IMG/VR virus record: IMGVR_UViG_3300028485_000154
Location: 1 to 5,800 of that record
Origin: a virus
Taxonomy: Duplodnaviria; Heunggongvirae; Uroviricota; Caudoviricetes
DNA length: 5,800 bases
Direction: 5' to 3' (one strand)
Shown: in pieces, positions 1 to 3,000 of the stretch
Layout of the letters: each line of letters starts with the position of its first letter
Position numbering within the stretch: the first letter of the stretch is position 1
Program-made: the position numbers

Positions 1-3000
1 GCATTTTTCCTTCGACAGCTTCATTCCCGGTATGACGGGCTTACCATCCACCATTGTGGCACCACGACAGATGGTCCATATGCCGGAGCCATCGCGGTAT
101 GCAGTGGTGTGATTCCCCTCTTTTTCATCCAGAAACTGATCGAGAATGTCAGGGGCAGGAGCACTGGCGGCAATCAGTGCCAGAACAGCAGCCGACAGGC
201 TGTATCTGATTTTTACGTTCATGGGTATTTATCAGGATTTATCGGCTTCAAATCCCCGGATATGTTAAATCTTACCTCGCCAGTGATGGGCACTGGCGGG
301 AGGAGGATGTCAATCTGATAAACACAGAGGTGACTATGGATTACACAAATCTACCAAAACAAACTTTTGCTGATTTAATCGCACTCAGGCAAGCAGTCGT
401 AGCTCTAATCAACTTGTTGCCAGAGAAGGAAAAGGAATTAGTTAAAGCGCTTCTTAACAGAACTGCCGCCGATTTTTCATCATATTCACTGACAGATGAC
501 CTTGTGGACCTTCCTGAATTAATTGCAGCGTCCGCCATTAAGCTTACTGAAGAGATTTACCCTCCTCAAAAATCTTCACAAAATTCCTGCGAGTAACTTC
601 AATGCAATAATCGTAAAACGCCGCAAACTGCTCATCGCGGTGTTTTTTTTCATCTTCAGAAGGAATCAGCACCGACAATTTTTTATTCAGATCAGCGACG
701 CTGCCCTCCAGTTTTTCAATGAGCGATTCAATATCATCTTTTTCTGACCGCAATGCCGTCGGTGGCGTCTTCAGAGAACCAGTAATTCTTCCCGGTAGTT
801 TTCCTCTGTAGGTTATCCACACATTCTGCGCCTCTAAAATTATGGGGCGCTTTCCCGGCAACGGTTCGTTCCCTTCACATAACCCGGCAGCAATATCCCG
901 GAACAATATCTTTGCCTGTTTGATTGCCTCTGTCTCGTAAAACTCCAGCGTTGCCCCTTCAACACGATCCATGCTGATATTCAGATCAACAATTTCACCG
1001 GCAAAACGTTCTTTATCCTGTAAGGCTACAATTACCGAGACTTTATTCTCAAAATTGCGGGTCCCTTTCACAATCAACTCATAGCTTTTAATCATTGAAT
1101 TACTCTCCCCGCGCCGCCTTGCGACGGTCCTCTTTTATCTTGAAGTACAGATTCGTCAGATAAGTCAGAAAACCCAGGAACAGGCTCCCCAGCACACCAA
1201 TCGCAGCCCACTGAGACGGACTAACCTGATCAAGCCATTGTAAAAACCAGTAGCCAGCACTGCCTGCGGAGGTGCCGTAGGCAATGCCTGTTGATATTTT
1301 TTCCATCTGATACATATCCCGCCCCGACAGACCTGTGCTACCGGAAAGAAAAAAGGCCATCAGCAAAACTCTGATGGCCTGAATCACCTTTACCAGTCAT
1401 GTATGAAGACAACACATGCAATCAGTTGACAATGATTCTCATTTCCATTAAAAAATACCGCGACATTCTTATTCATGAGGAGCTATACCCGCCAGCAACC
1501 AAAGTAGCGAAAGCTGTTCATCCCCCCAATATTTTTGCTGGCGGGTTCTTTTTTCTACTATCCTCCTCCCCGAGGGGGCATTTCAGTCTTTTTCTCATTA
1601 ATCGTTACCTGAAAGGCGGAAGAAAAAGTCCGTTCTTTGGCCCTAAATTACTTCATAATTTATGTCCATGCAAAATCTGATTTCCAACTCACATAATAAC
1701 CTGATGATACACTTGCAAAACCTGATAACATCAGGTTACTATGCGCCTGTGAAAAAATCTTCACGTTTTATTCCTTGCCGCCCGCGTTTCCCAACGCGGG
1801 CTTTTTTTCGAATCCCCCCTATTTGTGGAGGCATGGACAGCTAGGACAGAATACCTGGGTATTCATCATGATCCGTTGACCAATAGTACTTTCAATAATG
1901 GTCTGGCATCATAAAACTCCTCATAATAATTACTGCTTCTGTACACACCACCATCACGAGTGCCTCTTAGTGAAAAACATGCTGTCAGGAGTGAACCAAA
2001 TGCATTAATACGTGCTCGTACACTCACCTGAGGAACAGGAATATTAGGAATAACGCCAGGATTCGAGTCAGTAGAAATATTTAGATATCTGGGATTACTG
2101 GTACCTGAGCCATCACTGACAACACCAGAGGTTCGATCGTAACGTAATTGAATAGCTTCAGCTATATTCTCAGTCGGAATAAAACCGTCGGCAACGATTT
2201 CACTTTGCTCCCTCATCATTATATCTTCAAATCTGCTAAATGTTACTCCACGTCCTCTCAGTAACTGAACAGATGGCTCAAGCGAATAAAACTCATGATT
2301 CGCTCTGATCCTGTAGCGATATAAGTTACCATGAAATGTAGAACTGGAGAAATATTGCCTTGCTATACTATAAGTCTCATTTATGTCTGCAGTTGTTGCA
2401 ATAAAGGCGCTATCCCTAGACCCTGCAGCACATGAATCTCCTCTTACATGTTGCTGTAAATTGCGGTTAGCTCCGTGTGATCGAAATCCTTCTCTGAATA
2501 CAACGTCCGGTGGTCGGGAATCAACACGATACACAAACTGTACTGCATCTGTATTAAATGAAAGAAGCGTAAATATGAAAAATATAAAAGTTTTCATACT
2601 TCCCCCTTAGCTTTTTAATTACCAGAGGATGATTAACGCTTGCGCTCTGGACCAAAGCATTGATCTTCCTTAAAGCAGGTTGAGAAACCAGCTATAGCAT
2701 TTGTTGTTATTTTAGAAAACTCCTCATGTTTCCAGATATTTGGTTCATAATATACCCTGACTCTCTGCCCAGTGGAATAATAATACATAGCCTGATTATA
2801 AAAAGTATCAAATGCCGGAGACCATATTGAATACCCAGAAACCAGACATGCTGAGAGATTTACTTCCGTTTTAACAGCCTTAATACAAAAATATGGTTTT
2901 GAGTCAACCATTCCTGTATGGATATCCTGAATTACAACTTCTGAATACATGCCATCTTTTTTGGACCCCGTCCATTCACTGTCAGCGCTGGCATTAAAAC

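Follow-up and report, generated by a model that had tools for sequence, protein, structure and literature searches.

A small gene antisense to the lysis operon of lambdoid prophages in Escherichia coli and Salmonella, probably carried by a moron-type cassette

The DNA analysed here is a 5,800-nt stretch of a viral genome (IMG/VR record IMGVR_UViG_3300028485_000154, positions 1–5,800; hereafter the window), and is the late region of a lambdoid E. coli prophage whose major genes all lie on the minus strand. Between the gene for a 183-amino-acid (aa) protein and the lysozyme gene, and on the plus strand, sits an open reading frame (ORF) of 86 codons, which sequence comparison identifies as a genuine protein-coding small phage gene (positions in Table 1). 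We consider it probable that this gene belongs to a self-contained, moron-type cassette lying antisense in the late (lysis) operon of lambdoid prophages of both E. coli and Salmonella. Such a cassette would consist of an upstream block with a weak promoter-like pair of hexamers, a Shine–Dalgarno (SD) sequence, an ORF of 86–93 codons and a GC hairpin after the stop; the upstream late ORF – whichever it happens to be – would read through the hairpin in antisense and then 53–59 nt into the 3' end of the gene, again in antisense, to its stop.

Relatives of the small gene were collected by an exhaustive HMMER search and a profile search, which returned sequences at 40–55% identity from Salmonella enterica and from metagenome contigs. 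Three subfamilies were named: w (this window), s (Salmonella) and m, with genes of 86–93 codons that share 60–68% nucleotide identity between subfamilies. In comparisons between subfamilies five of the six frames carry 1–10 stops and only the annotated one is open; this frame gives the highest BLOSUM62 score in every pair, and differences fall most often at the third codon position, then the first, then the second, which is the pattern of coding sequence. SD and start codon are retained in all three, the former as TAAGGA, 6 nt before ATG or GTG, in s and m. The protein of the window matches phrog_2572 over its full length (E = 3.4e-52, residues 1–86 onto profile positions 1–86 of 86); P0024 and P0026, relatives from the Salmonella and m subfamilies, also match this family. 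Across the ORF both GC skew and AT skew turn to plus-strand sense. Coding status rests on the conservation of frame, SD and start across the three subfamilies together with the full-length PHROG match; and because homologs at 40–50% protein identity keep the SD and start, the small protein itself appears to be under selection. The original prediction, which had described a real gene of 86 codons at 336–596 with an AGAGG SD, a 5-nt spacer and an overlap of about 53 nt with the 183-aa gene, is thus borne out in each of these particulars.

Within E. coli the standard 86-aa ORF is intact in 75 of 87 loci. Four others keep the 86 codons and have a 2-nt insertion near the 3' end that removes the stop and lengthens the product to 137 aa; in-frame indel variants also exist. 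One allele has a nonsense codon, the kind of interruption that the original prediction had named as evidence against the gene. An ORF listing gives an 88-aa version that begins at an in-frame GTG at 330, and RefSeq labels the 86-aa coding sequence a hypothetical protein in a 99.2%-identical E. coli chromosome. A minus-strand ORF of 65 aa (341–538) was considered as a gene and rejected (dN/dS 2–7).

The small-gene region is carried by about 294 of 5,426 complete E. coli genomes (approximately 5%). The taxonomic range is narrow: the named hosts are E. coli and Salmonella only, and scans of GTDB genomes and metagenome contigs found copies of the E. coli type only. In a phage collection eight records contain the small gene, all from E. 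coli phages, and six of these (the PhiR phages) were grown on laboratory hosts according to their records; plaque-forming phages carry the cassette, which therefore does not prevent lysis. The slots occupied by the small gene differ, and include the space between S and R, a position after Rz beside the terminase genes (as for lambda bor), and a position downstream of Q.

The original prediction also suggested that the gene is accessory, and comparison with related phages agrees. In two collinear S–YdfR–R cassettes that have no small gene (L100 and L101) a YdfR protein of 103–116 aa abuts the lysozyme; where the gene is present, the insertion lengthens the YdfR-family ORF by about 70 codons and also brings in the small gene with the sequence upstream of it. 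GC content is 40–43% over positions 226–750, compared to 51–53% in the lysozyme gene and over 751–975; in the N-terminal part of the DUF1327 ORF it is also 0.42. Among 48 distinct E. coli copies nucleotide diversity is approximately 0.01 over 210–840 versus 0.06–0.2 in the flanks, and synonymous divergence (dS) is 0.04–0.09 in the module versus approximately 0.4 in the DUF1327 N-domain. The low diversity and low dS of the module therefore indicate recent spread by recombination into different phage backgrounds. Two marks of a moron – presence in some phages with absence from collinear relatives, and a base composition unlike that of the flanks – are both found here. The DUF1327 N-domains to which the conserved module is joined are highly diverse (dS approximately 0.4–0.7) and have several start variants.

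A further occupant of the same slot is seen in Shiga-toxin E. coli (STEC), where it holds a late-strand gene for a 213-aa protein (L007, 1044–1685, minus strand), present in up to 7–8 copies per genome. The first 60 or so residues of this protein correspond to the C-terminal extension of the 183-aa protein, with the hairpin; after them comes an unrelated domain of 150 aa (phrog_1085 / phrog_26186). The STEC slot is without the small antisense gene; it retains the last 34 nt of that gene, the hairpin and a 19-nt upstream block (described below), with other cargo between. The arrangement points to the P21-type holin–endolysin gap as a compact, exchangeable slot for cargo, the conserved edges of which would be the 19-nt block and the hairpin.

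At its 3' end the small gene overlaps the 183-aa ORF by 53 nt (544–596). Convergent overlap with a late-strand ORF, in the same antisense frame and over 53 or 59 nt, is found in all three subfamilies, and all distant homologs of the small gene are likewise convergent with a late ORF, with an overlap of 59 nt. The late-strand partners are DUF1327 proteins of 169, 176, 183, 211 and 243 aa, and other ORFs of 73, 116 and 144 aa, of which the 73-aa one, the Salmonella partner, stands alone directly behind Rz. By BLASTP and hhalign, partners from different subfamilies are homologous only in their last 34–35 residues, while their N-terminal parts are unrelated. This shared stretch is the antisense of the last 18–20 codons of the small gene, plus the GC hairpin, plus a T-rich run: the conserved residues RR/HR and AA are the hairpin arms CGCCGC/GCGGCG read backwards, which in subfamily m change jointly to RHH and GVA (CGCCACC/GGTGGCG), and the T run, read in reverse, yields an E-K/Q-K motif. 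The C-terminal extension of the late ORF is missing from the 103–116-aa YdfR proteins of phages without the small gene, is open in the same frame in all subfamilies and has a dN/dS of 0.3 to 1.2. The simplest reading of the overlapping convergent pair is that the late ORF reads through the 3' end of the cassette.

The original prediction had gone further, and had suggested that the two overlapping genes form an accessory module. If the two proteins did form a true module, the small one would cooperate with the C-terminal tail or extension of the late one (for example by binding or neutralising it in the lysogen, as an antitoxin does, or by entering a complex with it), and the overlap would couple their inheritance. 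That an overlap with a late ORF is kept in three subfamilies, in one antisense frame and at a near-constant 53 or 59 nt, fits this proposal, as does the intactness of the late ORF in most copies. The 73-aa ORF of Salmonella moreover resembles a real late gene: its start lies within the Rz stop region (L089, 4438–4445; ATGAATAG, an 8-nt overlap) behind an SD-like run, GGGGGG, which suggests translational coupling to Rz, and its dN/dS is 0.37–0.39. But the homology between partners is confined to what is dictated from the other strand (the 3' end of the small gene, the hairpin and the T-tract), down to the residues RR/RH..AA/VA and E-K/Q-K; only the last 35 or so partner codons are shared, the remainder is unrelated and not always DUF1327, the tail has a dN/dS of approximately 1 against the STEC variant, that variant has the tail without the small gene, and PADLOC gives no matches. 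The chance of the same frame arising in three lineages is approximately 0.1. What recurs beside the small gene is a late ORF and not DUF1327 in particular; we regard a cooperating pair of proteins as unlikely.

The DUF1327/YdfR-family partner has a literature of its own. YdfR of E. coli K-12 is reported to bind the catalytic (N-terminal) half of RNase E by way of residues 1–72 and to co-purify with RNA, which it perhaps also binds (PMC13232886, 2026). The neighbouring 183-aa protein shares with YdfR of the Qin prophage the DUF1327 domain at residues 1–112; since partners without DUF1327 are also found beside the small gene, no dependence on this domain is implied. A late lysis-cassette protein that targets RNase E merits attention in its own right. 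Annotation of the family is in systematic conflict. RefSeq (PGAP) labels the YdfR-family gene a pseudogene ("missing C-terminus") in every locus where it annotates the small gene (L001, 3605–3946; L004, 2036–2371; L005, 2114–2455; L006, 2038–2373) and treats the extension as non-coding; GenBank phage records annotate both overlapping genes, and in most copies the YdfR-family ORF is open for 169–211 codons. The present analysis settles this conflict, in which RefSeq keeps the small gene and marks its neighbour as truncated, where phage records keep both.

In every subfamily the hairpin folds (z –2.3 to –4.4), 18–23 nt past the stop of the small gene. In an alignment of nine sequence types 72 of 72 cells are paired, with one compensatory change (G-C to A-U) and one G-U variant. 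In the Salmonella pair there are no substitutions in the 54 nt from hairpin to stop, compared to 22 in the next 108 nt. In the window the hairpin is preceded by AAAA and sits within coding sequence, at codons KKHRDEQFAAF of the late ORF; a scan reported a shorter version of it (627–641). Bidirectional intrinsic terminators can be shared by convergent genes, and the hairpin looks like a candidate intrinsic terminator of the small gene, possibly a bidirectional one: an A-tract, a GC hairpin and a U-tract can be read on both strands. It differs from such terminators in that the predicted structure lies within coding sequence, where it dictates residues, and in the weak U tails of two subfamilies. 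The joint change from RR..AA to RHH..GVA is a clean case of an RNA hairpin shaping the amino acids of an overlapping gene.

At the other end of the cassette is the 19-nt block ATATTTATCAGGnTTTATC, with its two TTTATC repeats 10 bp apart, which is invariant in 120 of the 126 loci fetched. It does not vary between the E. coli, Salmonella and m subfamilies, in contrast to the diverging sequence around it. (Its positions elsewhere are L100 1425–1443, L007 1004–1022 and L089 3873–3891.) In Salmonella and in locus L096 the block accompanies the small gene with no lysozyme nearby. The block may be a promoter or operator (a protein-binding site), the leader of the lysozyme gene, or a boundary at which modules recombine. 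Its second repeat, together with a downstream hexamer, forms a candidate weak sigma-70 promoter: every subfamily retains both hexamers (the second as TATGTT or TATTGT) 17 nt apart, with a spacer that differs in sequence. Inspection of the upstream block by eye gave no sigma-54 or Fur-box pattern, and Rfam had no match in the cassette (223–700). An inverted repeat, CCAGTG-ATGGG-CACTGG, occurs at 280–296 (plus strand), within the small gene's presumed 5' leader; a relative of this repeat, GTGGTGGGACAC, is present in the Salmonella subfamily and not in m. If the cassette is a moron, then the small gene would be transcribed in the lysogen from its own promoter; after induction, head-on late transcription, antiterminated by Q, would shut it down.

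Because the unit lies between S/B and R and is antisense to the late operon over its full length, the active product could instead be the transcript and not the protein only. RNA fully complementary to the late mRNA between the holin side and the lysozyme may silence leaky late transcripts in a lysogen, delay synthesis of the endolysin or exclude incoming phages with the same cassette, with head-on interference adding to the effect. There is precedent for superinfection exclusion by an antisense RNA from within late genes (STnc6030 of BTP1; PMC7067206), no part of the cassette is better conserved than the non-coding hairpin region, and the module varies very little in nucleotide sequence from one phage background to another. 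Against this, conservation of the protein along with its SD and start shows selection on the protein, nucleotide identity between subfamilies is low enough to make any pairing of RNAs specific to a lineage, and viable phages carry the cassette. An effect exerted through RNA is in our view improbable. A combination of both modes is conceivable, whereby the cassette mRNA acts in antisense, together with a bidirectional hairpin, to lock endolysin expression from the late transcripts of a leaky prophage or an incoming phage, and the protein separately binds a host or phage target. Only late transcription that is modified by Q and coupled to ribosomes would pass, and the 35-codon tail of the late ORF would serve to keep ribosomes moving through the hairpin. 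We hold such a dual-function lysogeny device to be distinctly doubtful.

The moron-type cassette remains the reading that we prefer, and a number of observations weigh against it. In E. coli phages that have no small gene, the 19-nt block immediately precedes the start of the lysozyme gene. The promoter-like pair matches consensus at 7 of 12 positions, and a consensus scan missed it in all three subfamilies. The hairpin has an atypical loop of 12 nt and a poor U tail in s and m, and persists in the STEC variant, from which the small gene is absent. One lineage (7 of 87 loci, all with the same 176-aa partner) has ACG for ATG, and to this is added the nonsense allele mentioned above. Within E. 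coli the small gene has a dN/dS of 0.35–0.63, based on few substitutions, with an equally low value for the non-coding mirror frame: sequence diversity is too low for this measure to decide, and the test of dN/dS proposed in the original prediction was uninformative at this level, where frame conservation across subfamilies supports the gene. Finally, searches with the 86-aa protein found no family above threshold in Pfam or NCBIfam and no informative match in three fold searches, and neither it nor the 183-aa protein matches a defence-system model in PADLOC-DB at E ≤ 1. A chance ORF, in spacer or decayed DNA that separates the lysozyme from the YdfR-family gene, would explain the narrow taxonomy, the want of a detectable domain, the weak power of the within-species dN/dS, and the lost start and stop-bearing allele, but is very improbable given a frame, SD and start conserved at 60–68% nucleotide identity, 1–10 stops in every other frame and the full-length match to a PHROG family.

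The product is predicted to be an acidic, cytoplasmic, three-helix protein without a catalytic motif. The helices are placed at residues 8–25, 30–48 and 59–74 (pLDDT 70–73) and are followed by a disordered tail; the N-terminus, MDYTNLPKQTFADL, has neither signal peptide nor lipobox. As it lacks such a motif, the protein would most likely act by binding another protein. That it benefits the lysogen, for example by protecting it from other phages or by modulating the host, is our guess. Literature searches on the protein accessions, PHROG 2572 and ECOR phage names found nothing relevant. Several candidate identities were rejected. DUF1823, the name given in GenBank PV340545 and PV340549, is a partial match of 13.8 bits (E = 0.07) against a Pfam gathering threshold of 25 bits. 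The anti-CRISPR AcrIIC4 matched in sequence at E = 0.56, with no backing from fold. Similarity to tetratricopeptide (TPR) repeat proteins came from phmmer matches to TPR_10 that are sums of repeat matches; the hhalign probability is 0.2% and there is no Pfam TPR. For the Bor family of lambda there is no similarity, nor the signal peptide and lipobox of that family, and Pfam gives only the sub-threshold DUF1823.

Placement of a small gene antisense to a lysis operon has parallels. The bor gene of lambda is a moron at the end of the lysis cassette, where it converges with Rz; it lies opposite the late strand and is expressed in the lysogen, and its product is a lipoprotein of the outer membrane that has a signal peptide and lipobox. 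Both are small accessory genes opposite the late operon, at or in the lysis cassette, and missing from related phages, and the Salmonella homolog of the small gene stands exactly after Rz and before the terminase genes. In contrast to Bor, to which it has no similarity, the small protein is acidic and, by prediction, helical and lacks a signal sequence, and the 3' end of its gene and the hairpin lie inside the upstream late ORF. In Salmonella, STMMW_20121 of ST64B and STnc6030 of BTP1 are antisense to prophage lytic genes, have an independent promoter and are expressed in the lysogen, and such a position is characteristic of morons (PMC7067206). They resemble the small gene in this position, but have no homology to it, and STnc6030 is a non-coding RNA. 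With these parallels, and with recurrence in some 5% of complete E. coli genomes, the claim in the original prediction that the arrangement is unusual was overstated. The gene is already catalogued as PHROG 2572, of which the protein is a full-length member, and a moron cassette is a known feature of prophages and not a new system; the family record gives no function or context and does not include the cassette anatomy described here. As it stands, this is probably an ordinary moron. Its protein is widespread enough to be a candidate for tests of traits conferred by prophages, and the cassette would be of practical interest if the protein proved to be a factor in defence, exclusion or the timing of lysis.

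Table 1. Coordinates of the cassette and of other features in the window.
Feature	Position	Strand	Basis or remark
19-nt block ATATTTATCAGGnTTTATC	225–243	plus	G at first position here; direct repeat TTTATC at 228–233 and 238–243
Candidate weak sigma-70 promoter	-35 TTTATC 238–243; -10 TATGTT 261–266	plus	17-nt spacer
SD AGAGG	326–330	plus	5 nt before ATG; read from sequence
86-aa gene (A), PHROG 2572	336–596 (ATG 336; TAA 594–596)	plus	sequence, family match, homologs
Hairpin AAAACGCCGC / GCGGUGUUUU with U8 run	615–650 (stem-loop 615–646; U8 643–650)	plus	fold, conservation
C-terminal extension (about aa 113–183) of late ORF (B)	544–759	minus	last 18 codons overlap A; next ~17 cross hairpin
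183-aa DUF1327/YdfR-family gene	544–1095	minus	
DUF1327/YdfR-family N-terminal domain	760–1095	minus	Pfam PF07041, E = 5.5e-35, residues 1–112
Lysozyme (endolysin) gene, 5' part	1–222 (start codon 220–222)	minus	Pfam Phage_lysozyme; phrog_7; RefSeq rrrQ in L001
Holin, class II (P21 S-type)	1100–1315	minus	Pfam PF04971, E = 2.7e-35; RefSeq coordinates in L001
Pertussis-toxin S1-like ADP-ribosyltransferase	1866–2597	minus	Pfam PF02917, E = 6e-14
139-aa ORF, secreted-looking	2633–3052	minus	partner of the ADP-ribosyltransferase
Antiterminator Q	3354–3740	minus	
DUF968/HNH protein	3743–4738	minus	
KilA-N protein	4740–5537	minus	
RusA	5557–5766	minus	

In the 99.2%-identical E. coli locus (L001) the RefSeq features rrrQ, the 86-aa coding sequence and the holin map to window positions up to 222, 336–596 and 1100–1315, respectively, and the lysozyme start was placed on the basis of these coordinates. 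The ADP-ribosyltransferase and the 139-aa ORF lie directly downstream of Q, the slot of the Shiga toxin genes in Stx phages; in L001, the E. coli chromosome most similar in the lysis region, a DNA methyltransferase and not an ADP-ribosyltransferase is found downstream of Q. Upstream of the holin, a sub-threshold Rfam match to SgrS covers the full length of the model (1349–1568, minus strand; 27.7 bits against a gathering score of 37, E = 1e-4) and ends at a strong terminator-like hairpin (1354–1380, minus strand). This stretch may be an element of the late transcript, either resembling a small RNA or serving as a leader.

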